This document shows, piece after piece, positions 860 through 7,625 of a DNA stretch of 20,962 nt; positions within the stretch are counted from its first letter, which is position 1; every line of letters begins with the position of its first letter. Under the pieces are notes generated by a model. The model did no database searches, was not told where the DNA came from, and saw only the letters and a list, made by a program, of their open reading frames with translations. The stretch lies in the IMG/VR virus record IMGVR_UViG_2671181136_000003; one strand, given 5' to 3'. A program made the position numbers and the translations under genes. This DNA comes from a virus. Taxonomy: Duplodnaviria > Heunggongvirae > Uroviricota > Caudoviricetes.

Positions 860-991
860 ATGTCAGACAAACTCATAACGCTGGCGAAGATCCTCTGTGT
901 AATTGTCGGCATTTCATTTTCACTAATGCTGGTTGCTCTTTTTCTTTCCATGGCCTGGATGATGTTGTCTTCGTCGGGGCTGCTGGGGTGA
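860..991 (+). CDS. Hypothetical small membrane protein (43 aa, single predicted transmembrane helix)
   Basis: ATG at 860 preceded by a strong RBS GAAGGGAGGA (844-853). Almost entirely hydrophobic ([26 protein letters not shown]). Its TGA stop overlaps the GTG start of Rz (GTGA), suggesting translational coupling. Confidence 0.45.
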
Positions 992-1488
992 ACATAAACC
1001 GAATGCTTTCCGCGTTTATCGTTATTCTGCTGGTGGCCTGTGGTGCGCTGTGGATGGCAACAGACCATTACCGTGATAACGCGATTACCTACAAAGCGCA
1101 GCGCGATAACAAAGCCAGTGAACTGAAGCTGGCGAACGCAACCATTACTGATATGCAGGTGCGCCAGCGCGATGTTGCTGCGCTCGATGCAAAATACTCG
1201 AGGGAATTAGCCGATGCGAGAGCTGAAAATGAAACTCTTCGCGCTGACGTTGCCGCTGGTCGTAAGCGCCTGCGGATCAACGCCACCTGTCCAGGCTCCG
1301 TGCGTGAAGCCCCCACCACCTCCGGCGTGGATAATGCAACCGGCCCCCGACTGGCAGACACCGCTGAACGGGATTATTTCATCCTCAGAGAACGGTTGAT
1401 GACAATGCAGAAGCAGCTGGAAGGGGCGCAGGAATATATCCGCACTCAGTGCACTAAGCTGGCTTTTTATTATCCGGAGGATATATGA
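988..1488 (+). CDS. Rz: Rz i-spanin (inner-membrane spanin subunit)
   Basis: Translation closely matches the remembered lambda Rz sequence ([14 protein letters not shown]..., [37 protein letters not shown]). N-terminal TM segment. Start may be GTG at 988 or ATG at 1003. Confidence 0.9.
1214..1399 (+). CDS. Rz1: Rz1 o-spanin (outer-membrane lipoprotein), embedded in the +1 frame of Rz
   Basis: Completely nested inside Rz in another frame. Lipobox LVVSAC, proline-rich core [27 protein letters not shown], closely matching remembered lambda Rz1. Confidence 0.85.
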
Positions 1489-1709
1489 AGAAATTACTGG
1501 TAACCGTAAAGCCTTTTCAGGGAACAATTCTGTTCCGTATTTTGCAGCGTGGTCGTGTTCTTGTTGAAGGTTCGTTCAGTGGTAAATGTACGCAATTACA
1601 CTCCCGGACCTTTCAGGTGAATGCCACGAATGAAGAGCTAACCGTGGAGTGTACGATGAATGCCGCTAAATGCCGCATGGTATCCGCTGCATTACAGCCA
1701 GTGTGTTGA
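1485..1709 (+). CDS. Hypothetical protein (74 aa), first gene of the accessory island
   Basis: ATG at 1485 preceded by GGAGG (1476-1480) and overlapping the Rz stop (ATGA). No family recognised. Confidence 0.4.
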
Positions 1710-1984
1710 GCGACCTTATTATCCATGCGCGGTATTGTCGCCGTATTCCCGCATTAACAGAGACCGCAGCCCGACCGGGAGACTCCTCTTCGCGAGTGTG
1801 CGGGGATAATCAAAAACGATACACACCGGGGTTTACCGCGTTAACGGAGCGCGGCGTTGCCCCTCATAGTCGCCTGTCCGGTGCGATGGTGGAAGAAGCC
1901 GGACGATGTGTTACCTCGCAAGCCCTGTTATGTGTCTGATTTGTGATTTAAGTCGGATAATTGTCGTTGCCATCAAGCAGAGGA

Positions 1985-2027
1985 TTGATGACCGACAGGG
2001 TGGCATTGTTAGAATAAGACTTATTCT
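1985..2027 (+). promoter_or_regulatory. Candidate promoter with overlapping 17-bp palindrome upstream of the TonB-C-like lipoprotein gene
   Basis: Possible -35 TTGATG (1985-1990) and -10 TAGAAT (2010-2015), spacer about 19 nt. Perfect inverted repeat AGAATAAG-A-CTTATTCT (2011-2027) overlaps the -10. Sequence-only, untested. Confidence 0.25.
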
Positions 2028-2041
2028 TATCTGTGCCGGGA

Positions 2042-2374
2042 ATGAAAATGAAAAGAAATCTTCCGTTAATTATTTTGTTGTCTTCTCTGGTTATGGGCTG
2101 TACGCAACATAAAACAGATATGCCCCGACAGTTGGTTAAGGCATTACCACAATATCCGGCCTATGCAGCGGCAAATTATATAAAGGGACGGGTTGATGTG
2201 AAGTTTGATATTGGTGCTGATGGTACTGTCACCCGAATTGAGTTTATCCGTTCAGAGCCGCACCATCTGTTTGATGAGCAGGTTGTAAAGGCGATGGCAA
2301 AATGGCGATTTGAGAAGGACAGGCCGCGTAAAGGCGTGAAGAAAACGTTTATCTTTAGTCCTTCTGCACCCTGA
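2042..2374 (+). CDS. Putative lipoprotein with a TonB C-terminal-like domain
   Basis: N-terminal signal peptide with lipobox-like LVMGC. The rest aligns by eye to the TonB C-terminal domain (PxYPxxAxxxxIxGxVxVKFDIxxDGxV, then AMxKWRFE). Start is ATG 2042 or ATG 2048; the ORF track shows GTG 2033. Confidence 0.65.
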   Translation: MKMKRNLPLIILLSSLVMGCTQHKTDMPRQLVKALPQYPAYAAANYIKGRVDVKFDIGADGTVTRIEFIRSEPHHLFDEQVVKAMAKWRFEKDRPRKGVKKTFIFSPSAP

Positions 2375-2505
2375 TTATTTCATCAGAAATTAATTATCAC
2401 TCTGTTGTTATTCTGTACATTCCGGCTGGGTAAGTCTTGTTCCGCCGGGTATGAAGATGAAATATTGTTGGAGGACAGTGGGTGCCTGCTCCTGTAACCG
2501 AACGT

Positions 2506-2706
2506 TCATTTCTCGTTATTTGTCATGCTGGCCGGACGCAGATGCGTTGCATCTGTTGCCAGCCTTCTCCTGCAGGCTTCAATAACCCACGCTGAAAAGT
2601 TACCGGAACCTTTATGTTCAAGGGCGATATTGATCTGTTCAATCATGTGATTGGGGAAACGGATATTGCGGGTTGTGGTTCTGCGGGTCCGGTTTTTCGA
2701 TGACAT
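2506..2706 (-). CDS. Small DUF3950 / YlcI-like protein (66 aa), convergent with the lipoprotein gene
   Basis: Start placed at the internal ATG (2706-2704) of - strand ORF 2506..2766, which has an RBS AAAGGAAAT upstream. The sequence (MSSKNRTRRTTTRNIRFPNHMIEQINIALEHKGSGNFSAWVIEACRRRL) resembles, from memory, the DLP12-prophage YlcI family, which also lies between lysis and packaging genes. The identification is memory-based, so the symbol is left blank. Confidence 0.55.
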   Translation of the reverse strand: MSSKNRTRRTTTRNIRFPNHMIEQINIALEHKGSGNFSAWVIEACRRRLATDATHLRPASMTNNEK

Positions 2707-2747
2707 ATTTATTTCCTTTACTGATTGCCATATGACGGGGATTTTAC

Positions 2748-3113
2748 ATGGCTGAGCTTCGTACACTCCAGAGCAGAATCAAAACACTGAATACCCGACG
2801 GGTGAATATTCTGAAGGGTGAACAGCGTCGTGTCAGTGGCAGTGCACGTGTTTCCCTCAAGCGTCATATCTGGCTGAGGGATGCCGGACAGTGCTGTCTC
2901 TGTGGTCGTGTGGTTGACCTCTGTGACAGTGAACTCGATCACCGAATTGCACTTCAGTTCGGTGGTGGTAATGAGGAGACGAATCTCTGGACGCTCTGTA
3001 CCGAATGCCATCGCCAGAAGTCAGTCAGTGAAACGGCGAGTGGTATGCCGGACCCGACGCTGCCGGAGGTGTCCGGAGGTCATGGCAGGGCAGACGATAT
3101 CATCGGACTGTGA
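2748..3113 (+). CDS. HNH endonuclease (packaging-associated)
   Basis: Motifs CxxCG ... DHRIALQFGG ... N ... CxxCHxxK. Lies immediately upstream of the terminase genes, the position typical of HNH proteins that assist terminase in HK97-like cos phages. Confidence 0.85.
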   Translation: MAELRTLQSRIKTLNTRRVNILKGEQRRVSGSARVSLKRHIWLRDAGQCCLCGRVVDLCDSELDHRIALQFGGGNEETNLWTLCTECHRQKSVSETASGMPDPTLPEVSGGHGRADDIIGL

Positions 3114-3204: not shown

Positions 3205-3331
3205 CAGTTAACATGTTAACTGGCTGCCCGGGCATTTTTGCGGTTTTTATCTTTATTATTCAGTTTGTTGTGCGGAAAAAATGTTAACAGGCTTTTTCAG
3301 CAAATGTTAACCAGGCAGCAGTTAACATTTG
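3205..3331. promoter_or_regulatory. Cluster of four GTTAAC-core motifs (candidate terminase recognition / cos-region or operator elements)
   Basis: Perfect 18-bp palindrome CAGTTAACATGTTAACTG (3205-3222); ATGTTAAC at 3281-3288; 11-bp inverted repeat CAAATGTTAAC (3301-3311) and GTTAACATTTG (3321-3331) separated by 9 bp. All lie in the 289-bp non-coding gap between HNH and terS. Confidence 0.45.
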
Positions 3332-3402
3332 CGGCATGAGACGCCGGGAAAAATGGGCTGAACCATACCCGGCTGAGTGCGTTCTGGACCCGGGAGGAGG
3401 CT

Positions 3403-3966
3403 GTGCTGACAACGCAAAAACGAAAATTTGCGCTGGCGCTCATGTCCGGGAAAAACAAAACAGCGTCAGCCATTGCCGCCGGTTATTCGGCGAAGACAGC
3501 CAGGGTTAAAGGCTCGCAGCTGGCAAAAGATCCGGAGGTGCTCGCGTTTATAGCCCGTAAACAGTGCGAGACGGTGGAGGTGGATGAGGTTCCTGTTTAC
3601 CGGCAGAAAAAATCAGAGCAGGAGGATAAACCCCGTCGCCGTGAGGCGGCTGCAATACCACAGCCGGACGAAAACAATCCGGAGATGCCACCGTCCGCGG
3701 TGATGTCTCCTGGTATTGAATATATGGAGGATGGTCTTCCCGATCCGGTGAAAGCCATGGGGCGGATCCTGGTGGAAAACCTCTGCATTGATCCGAAACT
3801 GGCACTGGATGCGGCCTGGCGTCTGGCGCAGTTCACGCACCATAAAAAAGGGGATGCCGGTAAAAAATCGGCAAAAGGTGATGCCGCGAAAAAAGCGGCT
3901 AACCGTTTTGCGGTGCCACCGCCACCCCGACTGGTGGTGAATAACGATAATGAGGGCAACGGATGA
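3403..3966 (+). CDS. Terminase small subunit
   Basis: GTG start with RBS GGGAGGAGG (3391-3399). N-terminal HTH-like segment (KTASAIAAGYSAKTARVKGSQL) typical of small terminases of the P27-type family. Stop overlaps the terL start (ATGA). Confidence 0.75.
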   Translation: MLTTQKRKFALALMSGKNKTASAIAAGYSAKTARVKGSQLAKDPEVLAFIARKQCETVEVDEVPVYRQKKSEQEDKPRRREAAAIPQPDENNPEMPPSAVMSPGIEYMEDGLPDPVKAMGRILVENLCIDPKLALDAAWRLAQFTHHKKGDAGKKSAKGDAAKKAANRFAVPPPPRLVVNNDNEGNG

Positions 3967-5624
3967 TACCTGTATGGAGCACAGCCTGCCCGGACTGGGC
4001 AGAGCGCCTGAAAAAGGGGCTGTCGATTATTCCGGCTCCGATTTATCCGGACCAGGCTGCACATGCACTGGCGATTTTTAAACAACTGCGGATTGTGGAT
4101 GCACCGGGTAGCCCGACGTTCGGGGAGTCCTGCGCACCGTGGGTGTTTGACCTGGTGGCGGCCCTGTTTGGCTCCTATGATGCGCAGACCGGTGTACGCC
4201 ATATCAAGGAAGTGTTTATCCTTATCCCCAAGAAAAACAGTAAGTCCACGCTGGCCGCGGGGATCATGATGACGGCGCTGTTACTGAACTGGCGGCAGGC
4301 GGCGGGCTACACCATTCTGGCCCCGACCGTGGAGGTGGCGGCTAACGCCTTCAACCCTGCCAGGGATATGGTACGACGGGACGATGATCTGGATGACCTC
4401 TGTCAGGTGCAGACACATATCCGGACCATCACCCATCGGGTGACGGACACCACCCTGAAGGTGGTGGCAGCCGATCCGAATACGGTGTCCGGTATCAAGT
4501 CCGTGGGGACACTGATTGATGAACTGTGGCTGTTTGGCAAGCAGTACAAAGCGGAAGACATGCTACGTGAAGCCATCGGCGGGCTTGCCTCCCGTCCGGA
4601 AGGATTTGTGGTGTACACAACCACCCAGTCGAATGAACCGCCTGCCGGGGTGTTCAGACAGAAACTGCAGTACGCCCGGGATGTCCGTGACGGCAAAATT
4701 CATGATCCGCACTTTCTGCCGGTGATATTTGAACACCCTCCTGAAATGGTGGAAAGCGGGGCTCACCTGCTGATGGAAAACCTCGCCATGGTCAATCCGA
4801 ATCTCGGTTATTCGGTGGATGAGGCTTTTCTGTACCGGGAGTACCGTAAAGCCCGGGAGGCTGGTGAGGAAGCATTTCGTGGCTTCATGTCAAAACACGC
4901 CAATGTGGAAATCGGTCTTGCCCTGCGTTCTGACCGCTGGGCGGGCGCGGATTTCTGGGAGCAGCAGGGCCGTTGTATCAGCCTGGACGATATCCTGCGT
5001 CGTGCTGATGTGGTGACGGTGGGGATTGACGGCGGAGGGCTGGATGATCTGCTGGGGATGTATGTGATTGGGCGTGACCGGGAGACCCGCGAATGGCTGG
5101 GCTGGGGCCATGCCTGGGCGCATGAAACCGCGGTGGTCCGACGGAAGAGCGAGGCGTCCCGGTTTCAGGATCTTGTTGCCTGTGGAGATATGACCATTGT
5201 CCGGCGTGTCGGGGATGACACGGCGGAAGTGGCGGAATATGTGCGTCGCATTCATGAGGCTGAGTTACTGGACCATATCGGTATTGACCCGTCAGGGGTG
5301 GGGCAGATTCTGGATTCACTGGCGGAAGCCGGGATCCCCGACGGAATTGTGGTGGGGATAAGCCAGGGCTGGAAACTGGGCGGGGCCATCAAAACCACCG
5401 AGCGCAAACTGGCTGAAGGGGTGCTGATTCACGGTGATCAGCCCCTGATGGCCTGGTGTGTCGGTAATGCCCGGGTGGAGCCTAAAGGTAACGCCATTCT
5501 TATCACCAAACAGGCCAGCGGACGGGGAAAAATTGACCCGCTGATGGCGCTCTTCAATGCGGTGTCCCTGATGTCCCTGAATCCGGAACCGAAAAAGAAA
5601 GCGTATGAGGTTTTTTTCATATAA
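3963..5624 (+). CDS. Terminase large subunit
   Basis: 553 aa. N-terminal ATPase region with a P-loop-like segment (ILIPKKNSKST), C-terminal nuclease-like region. Size and position after terS fit a phage large terminase. Confidence 0.9.
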   Translation: MIPVWSTACPDWAERLKKGLSIIPAPIYPDQAAHALAIFKQLRIVDAPGSPTFGESCAPWVFDLVAALFGSYDAQTGVRHIKEVFILIPKKNSKSTLAAGIMMTALLLNWRQAAGYTILAPTVEVAANAFNPARDMVRRDDDLDDLCQVQTHIRTITHRVTDTTLKVVAADPNTVSGIKSVGTLIDELWLFGKQYKAEDMLREAIGGLASRPEGFVVYTTTQSNEPPAGVFRQKLQYARDVRDGKIHDPHFLPVIFEHPPEMVESGAHLLMENLAMVNPNLGYSVDEAFLYREYRKAREAGEEAFRGFMSKHANVEIGLALRSDRWAGADFWEQQGRCISLDDILRRADVVTVGIDGGGLDDLLGMYVIGRDRETREWLGWGHAWAHETAVVRRKSEASRFQDLVACGDMTIVRRVGDDTAEVAEYVRRIHEAELLDHIGIDPSGVGQILDSLAEAGIPDGIVVGISQGWKLGGAIKTTERKLAEGVLIHGDQPLMAWCVGNARVEPKGNAILITKQASGRGKIDPLMALFNAVSLMSLNPEPKKKAYEVFFI

Positions 5625-5687: not shown

Positions 5688-7625
5688 GTGACTCTTAAAC
5701 GGGCCTGTTCCCTGCTGACGGTGAAATCCTTCAGTGAGGATGAACGGGTGATCACCGGGATTGCGTCAACGCCTTCTCCGGATCGGGATGGTGACATCCT
5801 GGAGCCGGAGGGGGCTGAGTTTGGCAGTACGATCCCGTTTCTCTGGCAGCATGACCATTCCCGCCCTGTAGGACAGTGTACGGTGCGTCGGGTCAGGGAA
5901 GGGCTGGAAATCACGGCAATGCTGGTGAAGCCGGAGCCGGGGATGCCCTCCCAGATGGCAGCCCGGCTGGATGAGGCCTGGGCTGCCATTAAGACCGGGC
6001 TGGTCAGGGGGCTTTCTGTGGGCTTCCGGCCCCATGAATACACTTATCTGGACGGAGGCGGACTGCATTTTCTGCGCTGGGATCTGATGGAGGTGTCTGC
6101 CGTCACCGTGCCCGCGAATGCGGAATGCACCATCCGGACCATTAAATATTTCGACCGCCCGTTTTCTGCCGCGTCCGGCAACCGGAAACCGGTGGTGAAA
6201 ATCGCATCTTCTGCCGGCGCTTCGGCACAGTCAATAACCTCTTTTCATAAGGAAAAGTCAGCAATGAATACTGGTGAACAGATTAAAAGTTTTGAAAACA
6301 AGCGTGCGGCGCTGGCAGCCTCCCTTGAGGAGATCATGAACAAAGCCGCAGAGGAAGGCCGCACACTGGATGTGGAAGAGGAAGAGCACTACGACAACAC
6401 CGCAGCGGAAATCCGTCAGGTGGATGCGCACCTGAAGCGTCTGCGTGAACTGGAAACCAGTAAGGCCGCCACGGCACAGCCGGTGAAACAGGCCGGTAAC
6501 GGGAATGTGGCCACGGTGGCTTCAGCGCCGGTGATCCGTGTTGAGCAGAAACTGGAGAAGGGGATTGGTTTCGCCCGCTTTGCCAAATCACTGGCCGCGG
6601 CTAAAGGTGTCCGCTCTGAAGCCCTGGAAGTGGCCCGTCGTCAGTATCCGGATGACAGCCGTCTGCATCATGTCCTGAAATCGGCGGTGGGGGCAGGGAC
6701 CACCACGGACCCGCAGTGGGCAGGCAGCCTGTCTGAATACCAGGAATATGCGCAGGACTTTATTGATTACCTGCGTCCGCAGACCATTATCGGGCGATTT
6801 GGTCAGGGCGGGATCCCTGCACTTCGTCAGGTGCCGTTCAATATCCGCGTGCATGCCCAGGTGTCCGGTGGTGCTGCCGGCTGGGTGGGTGAGGGTAAGG
6901 CCAGACCCCTGACGAAGTTTGATTTTGAATCCATCACCTTCAGTCATGCGAAAGTGTCGGCCATTGCGGTACTGACGGAAGAATTGATCCGTTTTTCCAG
7001 TCCGGCTGCTGATGCACTGGTCCGTAATGCGCTGGCGGAAGCGGTGGTGGCGCGTCTGGACACAGACTTTGTGGACCCGAAAAAAGCGGCGGTGGCGGAT
7101 GTCTCCCCGGCGTCCATCACCCATGATGTGAAGGGCACGGCATCAACCGGTAACCCGGATGCGGATGCCGAGGCCGCGTTTGGCCAGTTTGTGACGGCAA
7201 ATCTGCAGCCCACCGGTGCGGTCTGGCTGATGTCCAGCACCAATGCCCTGGCGCTCTCCATGCGTAAAAATGCGCTGGGGCAGAAGGAATATCCGGACAT
7301 GACCTTGCTGGGCGGGACCTTCCAGGGGCTGCCGGTGATTGTCTCCCAGTATGTGGGTGACCAGCTGGTACTGGTGAATGCACCGGATATTTATCTGGCT
7401 GATGACGGCGGTGTGGCGGTGGATATGTCCCGTGAAGCGTCACTGGAGATGCAGTCTGAACCGACCAGCGACAGCAGCACACCGTCACCGGTGGAACTGG
7501 TCTCCATGTTTCAGACCGGCAGCGTGGCCATCCGTGCGGAGCGCTGGATCAACTGGCGTCGTCGCCGTACCGCGGCAGTGGCGGTGATCACCGGTGTGAA
7601 CTACGGAACTGCGTCCGGTGGCTGA
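5688..7625 (+). CDS. Fused prohead protease (HK97 family) - major capsid protein (HK97 fold)
   Basis: GTG start with RBS CAGGAGG. The N-terminal ~170 aa carry prohead-protease-like motifs (PFLWQHD, GLSVGF, EVSAVTVPAN). A coiled-coil delta-domain-like stretch follows (ENKRAALAASLEEIMNKAAEEGRTLDVEEEEHY), then a ~400-aa capsid-like region. Confidence 0.8.
   Translation: MTLKRACSLLTVKSFSEDERVITGIASTPSPDRDGDILEPEGAEFGSTIPFLWQHDHSRPVGQCTVRRVREGLEITAMLVKPEPGMPSQMAARLDEAWAAIKTGLVRGLSVGFRPHEYTYLDGGGLHFLRWDLMEVSAVTVPANAECTIRTIKYFDRPFSAASGNRKPVVKIASSAGASAQSITSFHKEKSAMNTGEQIKSFENKRAALAASLEEIMNKAAEEGRTLDVEEEEHYDNTAAEIRQVDAHLKRLRELETSKAATAQPVKQAGNGNVATVASAPVIRVEQKLEKGIGFARFAKSLAAAKGVRSEALEVARRQYPDDSRLHHVLKSAVGAGTTTDPQWAGSLSEYQEYAQDFIDYLRPQTIIGRFGQGGIPALRQVPFNIRVHAQVSGGAAGWVGEGKARPLTKFDFESITFSHAKVSAIAVLTEELIRFSSPAADALVRNALAEAVVARLDTDFVDPKKAAVADVSPASITHDVKGTASTGNPDADAEAAFGQFVTANLQPTGAVWLMSSTNALALSMRKNALGQKEYPDMTLLGGTFQGLPVIVSQYVGDQLVLVNAPDIYLADDGGVAVDMSREASLEMQSEPTSDSSTPSPVELVSMFQTGSVAIRAERWINWRRRRTAAVAVITGVNYGTASGG

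Follow-up and report, generated by a model that had tools for sequence, protein, structure and literature searches.

We analysed a 20,962-nt stretch of viral DNA (IMG/VR record IMGVR_UViG_2671181136_000003; "the window" below means this whole stretch), which is the late region of an Escherichia coli (E. coli) lambdoid prophage. Between its spanins and its packaging module lies a gene for a small lipoprotein that carries a TonB C-terminal domain (TonB-CTD), and several lines of evidence support this gene as a prophage moron. By analogy with known inhibitors, the protein may act as an outer-membrane-tethered decoy for TonB boxes, a reading to which we assign a probability of about 0.4. RefSeq and GenBank already annotate the gene, and it has been listed among morons of unassigned role; its architecture, its spread, its link to Fur and its parallel with TolA appear to be undescribed.

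The gene and the parts of its product are as follows.

2048-2374, plus strand: TonB_C lipoprotein gene, 108 aa, product identical to WP_000828070.1 ('TonB family protein')
2048-2098, plus strand: signal peptide
2099-2101, plus strand: codon of Cys18
Residues 19-25: linker
2123-2359, plus strand: domain, residues 26-104

An earlier note, made from the sequence alone, had placed the gene at 2042-2374. The end stands, but the start is more likely 2048 (MKR...) than 2042. Position 2048 is the PGAP call, a GGGAA Shine-Dalgarno sequence lies 7 nt upstream of it, and the homologs all begin with MK(R/K).

The N-terminus, MKRNLPLIILLSSLVMGC, was assessed by direct reading against PROSITE PS51257, which expects the cysteine at 15-35, and it fits the pattern with K2, R3, a hydrophobic stretch L5-L14 and the lipobox L14-V15-M16-G17-C18. 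The lipobox cysteine is invariant in the full-length family members aligned (13/13). The residue at +2 after this cysteine is Thr here and T, S, A or V in the lipobox-bearing members listed, and it is never Asp. As Asp at +2 is the Lol-avoidance signal, the protein is expected to be delivered to the outer membrane, and it probably sits at the inner face of that membrane. With a canonical lipobox, Cys18 and Thr at +2, the lipoprotein-type signal peptide claimed before is well founded.

The likeness to the C-terminal domain of TonB, previously noticed by eye, is borne out by both profile and structure comparison. The protein matches Pfam PF03544 (TonB_C) with E=5.5e-15 and 56 bits against a cut-off of 24.6, and TIGR01352 with 56.5 bits against a cut-off of 27.1; the Pfam scan yields TonB_C and TonB_2 only. 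A PDB search returned TonB-CTD chains of E. coli and Salmonella (1u07, 2gsk_B, 2grx_C, 8rd6) at E~1e-16, gap-free over TonB 153-231, and the identity to the TonB C-terminal domain is 37-41%. The AlphaFold2 (AF2) model, built from an alignment of 22 sequences, has a mean predicted local distance difference test (pLDDT) score of 87 and reaches 96-98 across residues 31-100, whereas 6 near-identical sequences alone gave a pLDDT of 56. Foldseek against the PDB placed TonB-CTD structures first, namely 2gsk_B (BtuB:TonB) with a root mean square deviation (rmsd) of 1.0, 2grx_C (FhuA:TonB) with 1.1 and 1u07 with 1.3, at template modelling (TM) scores of 0.88-0.92; the overall rmsd range of the model on the E. 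coli TonB-CTD is 1.0-1.4 Å. The best matches are the monomeric, transporter-bound form of TonB. TolA domains are far weaker (E>=0.1), and the BFVD viral fold library holds no structure resembling the model. In the predicted structure the fold is retained as a short helix, two strands, a helix and a third strand.

Many TonB residues (numbered as in the literature) are kept: Y36/P37 correspond to Y163/P164 of the YP motif, F53 to F180, G59 to G186, F75 to F202, W86 to W213, F88 to Y215 and F103 to F230. In TonB, F180, G186, F202, W213, Y215 and F230 are functionally important positions. The beta3 strand, which pairs with the TonB box in TonB, is present at residues 94-103. Positions unlike TonB are K31 (R158), L33 (Q160) and Y39 (R166); Q160L is a functional suppressor allele of TonB.

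Judged by its sequence, the protein carries a TonB domain and yet is no TonB. The NCBIfam TonB equivalogs (PRK10819) score 49-73 bits against cut-offs of 265-448, and the match is confined to the last ~85 profile positions. The cytoplasmic-membrane anchor and the proline-rich periplasmic spacer are absent from the 108-aa protein, in which residues 1-18 form a lipoprotein signal peptide, and the ExbD-contacting segment of TonB is missing as well.

The mobile cassette, its family and its link to Fur

The cassette and the regulatory features within it are listed below.

1906-2495 (unstranded): presence/absence cassette of 590 bp with promoter, operator, TonB_C gene and 3' tail
1988-2015, plus strand: promoter-like site with -35 ATGACC (1988-1993), a 16-nt spacer and an extended -10 TGTTAGAAT (2007-2015; TAGAAT with TG); scan 9/12
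2011-2027 (unstranded): exact 8-1-8 palindrome AGAATAAG-A-CTTATTCT, overlapping the -10 and the predicted transcription start

The cassette is missing from phage vB_EcoS-569R3, which is otherwise collinear, with homology over 1300-1905 and then 2496-2900. The GC content is 0.42-0.44 over the TonB_C gene compared to 0.50-0.59 in the flanks. No intrinsic-terminator-like site was found on the plus strand at 2375-2505. In K-12, the interval from the spanins to the DUF3950 gene houses the accessory genes borD, ybcV, ybcW, gnsB, ynfN and cspI, and this slot is therefore a recognised moron site. Presence or absence, the dip in GC and the autonomous transcription of a 71%-identical ortholog support the gene at 2048-2374 as a prophage moron. 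The accessory island proposed earlier at 1485-2747 thus keeps its moron status and loses its extent, since the mobile unit is 1906-2495.

The ortholog is LF82_160 ('TonB fragment', 71% identical) of prophage Perceval, which in lysogens is expressed 8-fold above the prophage background (Misson et al., PMC9928086). Its log2 values are 5.0-6.6 in all conditions versus 2.3-4.3 for Rz and terS on the same strand (PMC9928086 supplementary table), with no significant change between conditions; Bor in LF82 has a log2 fold change (log2FC) of 7.1 across the compared conditions (PMC9928086). This shows that the subfamily B ortholog is transcribed autonomously and roughly constitutively in lysogens, and by homology only the same may be expected of the copy in the window.

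The close relatives form two groups, subfamily A (the window type) and subfamily B (71% identical). Subfamily B is represented by CPT_21_73 of phage 21, which is annotated as 'TonB C-terminal domain protein' and adjoins bor, and it is also found in phage ev017, prophage Perceval (strain LF82), Nissle 1917 and ATCC 11775. Among 5426 complete E. coli genomes, subfamily A occurs in 417 (7.7%) and subfamily B in 1225 (22.6%), and in four phage lineages the gene is found at the same place behind the spanins. Between the subfamilies, the ratio of nonsynonymous to synonymous substitution rates (dN/dS) is 0.12 at dS~1.5. By this sequence measure the gene is under purifying selection and is maintained rather than debris.

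An exhaustive HMMER search found further proteins of 107-135 aa, nearly all lipobox-bearing, at 33-49% identity; the genome scans for relatives used a 7-sequence alignment. Relatives with both a lipobox and TonB_C, at 38-51% identity, are spread across six genera: Klebsiella, Raoultella, Serratia, Erwinia, Pantoea and Salmonella. Chromosomal copies are found in Raoultella and Klebsiella (beside lacZ-lacI), Serratia (between ycgN and dsbB) and Erwinia, and tblastn of lysis and terminase proteins on those loci found no phage genes near them. Plasmid copies reside on IncF plasmids of Klebsiella and Pantoea, and phage copies in a Klebsiella phage and a Salmonella phage-like region, in both of which the gene follows the lysis genes. 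As the identity is 38-51% to these relatives compared to 37-41% to TonB, the phage lipoprotein belongs to an older TonB_C lipoprotein family that was acquired by phages.

The gene had also been credited with its own promoter and an overlapping palindromic operator. Taken alone, the promoter-like site is at chance level, as the window holds four such matches against 2.3±1.7 in shuffles. However, the extended -10, TGnTAG(A/T)AT, is conserved: phage 21 and the homologs of Salmonella, Klebsiella and Raoultella (40-50% protein identity) have it at the corresponding position. The palindrome is exact, although its right arm is deleted in phage 21. Part of it is contained in a degenerate Fur-box-like sequence at 2013-2031 that matches the Fur consensus (GATAATGATAATCATTATC) at 13/19 positions, a score that is reached by ~3% of local shuffles and is equalled or bettered elsewhere in the window. 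Fur, Zur, CRP, FNR, LexA, MntR, PurR, ArgR, TyrR, MetJ and NikR were each considered for the palindrome, and none was convincing from the window alone.

The relatives are more informative. Fur boxes lie upstream of the gene in Serratia (17/19; 0/200 shuffles), Klebsiella (16/19), Raoultella (15/19) and the Salmonella phage-like region (15/19), the last of which contains a perfect TGATAATNATTATCA. Their positions in the fetched loci are as follows.

L015, 5928-5946: Fur box of a relative
L012, 5910-5934: Fur box of a relative
L007-L010, ~5966-5990: Fur boxes of relatives
L150, 4922-4946: Fur box of a relative

In each case the box is the best Fur match of the ~12-kb locus, lies 25-70 nt before the start codon and follows just downstream of the extended -10; the palindrome of the window aligns with it. 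At the sequence level, this suggests that the TonB_C lipoprotein family belongs to the Fur regulon. The palindrome in the window aligns with the box of the relatives, matches at only 13/19 and has lost its right half in phage 21, and it is therefore best read as a decayed Fur box. To this extent the operator proposed before has counterparts at the same position in the homologs.

A candidate TonB-box decoy and its alternatives

In the mechanism that we propose, the signal peptide is cleaved and Cys18 is lipidated, and the complete TonB C-terminal domain, which corresponds to TonB 153-235, would then be suspended just beneath the outer membrane by the 7-8-residue linker. There the domain would bind the TonB-box strand of TonB-dependent transporters by beta-strand addition as in TonB; incoming group B colicins might be caught by their TonB boxes in the same way. 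Lacking a link to ExbB/ExbD, it could not energise the transporters and would compete with the scarce TonB of the host. The outcome would be less sensitivity to T1/phi80-type phages, group B colicins and siderophore-receptor microcins, at the cost of some loss of siderophore and B12 uptake. The gene would be transcribed in the lysogen from its own extended -10 promoter, and expression is probably largely constitutive because the Fur box of the E. coli phage copies is degenerate or half-deleted. We infer the outer-membrane location, the binding of TonB boxes and the exclusion phenotype.

Three points make competition for TonB boxes the most economical explanation. Periplasmic TonB fragments are reported to inhibit iron import by TonB-dependent transporters (Howard et al. 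2001, J Bacteriol 183:5885, as cited in PMC9841981). In the contact between TonB and a transporter, the TonB box is added as a strand to beta3 of TonB (PMC11658791), and beta3 is retained in the lipoprotein. A precedent is Llp of phage T5, described in bioRxiv 10.64898/2026.03.26.714494 as a small outer-membrane lipoprotein that binds and disables FhuA.

Several considerations weigh against a decoy. A general antagonist of TonB would starve the host of iron and B12. Judged by their Fur boxes, the chromosomal relatives would be induced at the very time at which uptake is needed, a strange pattern for a pure inhibitor; the boxes fit either a guard co-expressed with the receptors that it protects or a positive accessory role. 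On sequence grounds, the Fur link would fit the other option raised in the earlier note, an alteration of iron uptake, at least as well as exclusion. The expression of the ortholog is modest. The fold match is partly built in, as the AF2 alignment included true TonB C-terminal domains. The two phage subfamilies have K/T at the position of TonB R158, L/Y at Q160 and Q/R at Q162, and Y in both at R166, so contacts beyond backbone strand pairing may differ. No TonB-dependent transporter, exbBD or colicin genes adjoin any family member examined, and the window contains no exbBD. No functional study of phage TonB-like lipoproteins was found in the literature searched, and PADLOC gave no match for the lipoprotein.

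The Fur link is also the starting point of the alternative that survives best, though we consider it unlikely: the protein might be an iron-regulon accessory, an outer-membrane-anchored helper or modulator of TonB-dependent uptake, whose phage copy tunes the iron acquisition of the host. Possible modes are to hold periplasmic binding proteins near the transporters, or to park on the TonB boxes of unloaded transporters and so spare TonB for loaded ones. The first is in keeping with the reported binding of the periplasmic proteins FhuD and BtuF by the TonB C-terminal domain. The upstream Fur matches of the relatives (15-17/19, best of the locus at 25-70 nt), with which the palindrome of the window aligns, speak for such a helper, as do the ordinary, non-defence neighbourhoods of the chromosomal copies and the presence of the sitABCD iron/manganese importer as another moron of Perceval (PMC9928086). 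A domain without ExbBD is, however, unable to transduce energy, a good Fur box no longer exists in the E. coli phage copies (13/19 or half-deleted), expression of the ortholog in iron-replete lysogeny broth shows no differential regulation, and the parallel lipoproteins with TolA C-terminal domains have no obvious nutrient role. We know of no helper of TonB-dependent uptake of such a kind.

It is quite improbable that the protein acts in the manner of Bor, as an envelope lipoprotein whose effects are exerted via peptidoglycan or on the outer membrane in general and which tethers or stiffens the envelope or alters the surface, independent of TonB boxes. The TonB C-terminal domain is reported to have affinity for peptidoglycan, the gene shares its slot with bor in phage 21 and Perceval, and its product is a small outer-membrane lipoprotein moron like Bor. 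The TonB_C and TonB_2 matches are nevertheless the only ones, and neither sequence nor fold relates the protein to Bor, Lpp or OmpA-like peptidoglycan binders. The TonB-box-binding architecture is kept whole and, together with the Fur boxes of the relatives, points to the Ton system. Furthermore, Bor is strongly induced in LF82 and the TonB_C ortholog is not.

PHROGs files the family as phrog_1267 'Rz-like spanin' (E=2.6e-42), and in four phage lineages the gene follows immediately after the spanins on the late strand, as a late lysis accessory might, be it a spanin-like or a spanin-assisting outer-membrane lipoprotein. We regard this role as very improbable. The window already has a complete Rz and Rz1, and the lipoprotein has no Rz/Rz1 (Phage_lysis) profile match, coiled coil or C-terminal membrane segment. 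The gene is absent from closely related functional phages, its ortholog is transcribed in lysogens in which the lysis genes are silent, and the chromosomal and plasmid relatives have no lysis genes nearby. The PHROG label is most likely an error carried over from the neighbouring gene, one that Pharokka-type annotations will spread.

Equally remote is a functionless remnant, a captured tonB fragment drifting with the prophage, as the annotations 'TonB fragment' and 'partial tonB-like membrane protein' and the many frameshifted or truncated copies in the protein database might suggest: dN/dS is 0.12, a lipoprotein signal peptide absent from TonB has been acquired, six genera share the architecture at 38-51% identity, the promoter element is conserved and the ortholog is transcribed.

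If the decoy proposal is true, about three in ten complete E. coli genomes carry such a gene (the subfamily shares summed, co-occurrence ignored), among them Nissle 1917, the type strain, LF82 and many Shiga-toxin and enteropathogenic E. coli (EPEC) lineages. The gene would blunt TonB-dependent entry in these carriers, with effects on how readily they are infected by phages of the T1 and phi80 types and by TonB-requiring candidates for phage therapy, on the action of group B colicins and siderophore-receptor microcins, and possibly on that of siderophore-conjugated antibiotics. Superinfection exclusion would gain a receptor-independent mode at the level of energy coupling. If the family aids iron uptake instead, it would be an unrecognised component of the Fur regulon.

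Neighbouring elements of the late region

The window from 1400 to 2800 is 100% identical in two RefSeq chromosomes, and prophages of EPEC and Shiga-toxin-producing E. coli (STEC) type are ~96% identical over the whole window. The gene order is lysozyme, two small membrane open reading frames (ORFs), Rz/Rz1, a 74-aa ORF, the TonB_C gene, the DUF3950 gene on the opposite strand, HNH, the small terminase subunit (TerS) and the large terminase subunit (TerL), and an HK97-type head followed by a lambda-type tail lies 3' of TerL. The features around the cassette are listed below.

988-1488, plus strand: Rz i-spanin (left border), Pfam Phage_lysis 3.4e-49
1214-1399, plus strand: Rz1 o-spanin, embedded in Rz, Pfam Rz1 1e-21
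1485-1709, plus strand: 74-aa ORF, start overlapping the Rz stop codon (ATGA); hypothetical protein in PGAP
1732-1904, plus strand (late-transcript strand): structured RNA-like element of ~175 nt between lysis and packaging genes, independent of the TonB_C gene
2506-2706, minus strand: DUF3950 / YlcI-YnfO gene, convergent with the TonB_C gene, Pfam DUF3950 4.2e-20; NCBIfam YlcI_YnfO_N
2748-3113, plus strand: HNH endonuclease (right border, start of the packaging module), Pfam HNH 2e-06; PGAP
3403-3966: TerS, terminase module
3963-5624: TerL, terminase module

The three small ORFs that had been seen between the spanins and the HNH/terminase module are confirmed as 1485-1709, the TonB_C gene and 2506-2706. 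For the first of these, no Pfam, NCBIfam or PADLOC match was found. It matches just positions 100-172 of the 291-position phrog_2571 and, by that alignment, may be what is left of a longer protein. In other phages its place is taken by a Rha or KilA-N gene; in phage Lys8385Vzw, window 1728-2900 is retained and a Rha-family gene substitutes for the ORF.

The sequence at 1732-1904 appears to be a conserved structured RNA-like element and not an empty spacer. It occurs in 398 phage records, including lambda-like, Stx (Shiga toxin) and Salmonella phages, and DLP12 of K-12 has a partial copy between borD and ybcV. The element folds into seven helices with 98.1% of cells paired (40 representatives <95% identity), compared to 34-61% in slid controls. 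Compensatory change is seen at 11 pairs versus 4.1±1.4 in shuffles (0/500), and many U·G/U-A/C-G alternations are compatible with the plus strand only. Its conservation between the window and phage 21 far exceeds that at synonymous sites in the adjacent gene, and the 1-nt indels that distinguish close relatives argue against coding. No Rfam match was found for the region, either at the gathering threshold or at E<=5. The prophage small RNAs AgvB/AsxR and Pas were set aside, as they are located at the pR' site and not at 1732-1904. An ORF at 1670-1939, which matches phrog_6954 'Rz-like spanin', was rejected as coding on account of the 1-nt indels and the RNA-type covariation; spurious ORFs are annotated on both strands of 1732-1904, and phrog_6954 seems to be built on them. 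The TonB_C cassette starts two bases after the last helix of the element.

The DUF3950 gene is indeed convergent with the TonB_C gene, but this layout is a weak argument for a moron, as the gene is backbone. It is kept in every compared phage, also where the TonB_C cassette is absent, and in K-12 a gene of this type is fixed beside terminase-like genes (ylcI-nohD, ynfO-nohA); it therefore lies outside the moron. Its protein resembles a ribbon-helix-helix DNA-binding protein (IRFPNHMIEQINIALE...NFSAWVIEACRRRL) and has a weak HicB-like PHROG match (E=0.007). The gene invariably lies next to terminase or HNH genes in divergent orientation, and its product may therefore have a regulatory or assisting role in packaging. 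The perfect Fur-type palindrome TGATAATNATTATCA occurs in 41 of the 153 fetched loci; in lambdoid prophages it lies between the DUF3950 gene and a small-terminase-like gene, for example in the ylcI-nohD (L026, 5095-5109) and ynfO-nohA (L027, 2594-2608) intergenic regions of K-12. No such site is present in the window. Both nohA and nohD are reported to be Fur-regulated.

The interval between HNH and TerS, upstream of terS, holds a cluster of GTTAAC-centred inverted repeats at 3205-3332, with CAGTTAACA/TGTTAACTG (an 18-bp palindrome) and three copies of AAATGTTAAC or its complement. From its sequence and place this is possibly a cos or terminase-binding region or another regulatory site. In NZ_CM136167.1, which is identical to the window over 1400-2800, an IS66-family insertion sequence, ISEc23, lies between terL and the major capsid gene (L001, 10279-12695). 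In the window, an ORF at 5688-7625 that matches the 1938-bp capsid gene of a related prophage directly follows terL, so the window appears free of this insertion. The J gene of the prophage lies outside the window, and the annotation of the related prophage contains no cor gene.

Comparison with known systems

The closest known structure is the TonB C-terminal domain itself (E. coli TonB 150-239; 1u07, 2gsk_B, 2grx_C), with which the lipoprotein shares the fold, the YP motif, the aromatic residues and beta3. It differs in having a lipoprotein signal and a 7-8-residue linker in place of the rod, and it ends at the equivalent of T235. The engineered periplasmic TonB fragments, dominant-negative inhibitors according to the work cited in PMC9841981, likewise consist of a periplasmic TonB C-terminal region without energy coupling; those are laboratory products, soluble and overexpressed, whereas the window lipoprotein is natural, lipid-anchored and phage-borne. 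Llp of T5 and Cor of phi80/N15 are also small phage-encoded outer-membrane lipoproteins; both serve superinfection exclusion by inactivating FhuA (Cor and FhuA: PMC11436027), and Llp, once bound to this TonB-dependent transporter, prevents further infection. A Pfam scan found no sequence or profile similarity of these to the TonB_C lipoprotein, and they are each specific to a single receptor, whereas the action of a TonB-CTD decoy should extend to every TonB box.

Lambda Bor and the other morons of the slot (borD, ybcV, ybcW; gnsB, ynfN, cspI) share its place and its autonomous expression in lysogens. Bor, which confers serum resistance, is an envelope lipoprotein too, but its fold is unrelated and bor lies on the opposite strand, whereas the TonB_C gene is on the late strand. 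The chromosomal and plasmid 'TonB family protein' lipoproteins (e.g. WP_032416808.1) have the same combination of lipobox and TonB_C in 108-135 aa and the extended -10. Many of them have strong Fur boxes and non-phage contexts, in contrast to the window copy, which has no strong Fur box.

A parallel design exists on the other energy transducer and lends strength to the decoy proposal. The TonB and TolA C-terminal domains are related folds and serve as periplasmic hubs for group B and group A colicins, respectively; filamentous phages use TolA. A 144-aa lipoprotein, WP_032416767.1 (lipobox LITAC; TolA C-terminal domain, Pfam 5.3e-24), is encoded on plasmids of Klebsiella and Pantoea at a distance of 3-5 kb from the TonB_C lipoprotein. 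Of the 6 listed plasmid records with the 40%-identical TonB_C lipoprotein, 5 carry it as well, and it is present in 750 plasmid records, mostly Klebsiella. The lambdoid phage mEp460_ev081 carries two tandem TolA-domain lipoproteins at the Q-holin moron site. RefSeq names such proteins 'cell envelope integrity protein TolA'.

L152, 2348-2782: TolA-domain lipoprotein, Pfam TolA 5e-24, lipobox LITAC
L153, 3489-3917: TolA-domain lipoprotein, Pfam TolA 2e-23, lipobox IIIGC
L153, 4068-4463: TolA-domain lipoprotein, Pfam TolA 1e-14, lipobox FVAGC

The domain family and the phage slot differ from those of the TonB_C lipoprotein, and the mobile-element design is the same. By analogy, the TolA-domain lipoproteins suggest that there may be a general decoy principle. 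In its widest form, which we consider rather doubtful, the mobile elements of Enterobacterales (lambdoid phages, IncF plasmids and islands) would carry a hitherto unrecognised class of envelope decoys, outer-membrane lipoproteins that display a TonB or TolA C-terminal domain, intercept the corresponding motifs of phages and colicins and provide broad exclusion or tolerance, with the TonB type ancestrally Fur-co-regulated with the receptors that it guards.

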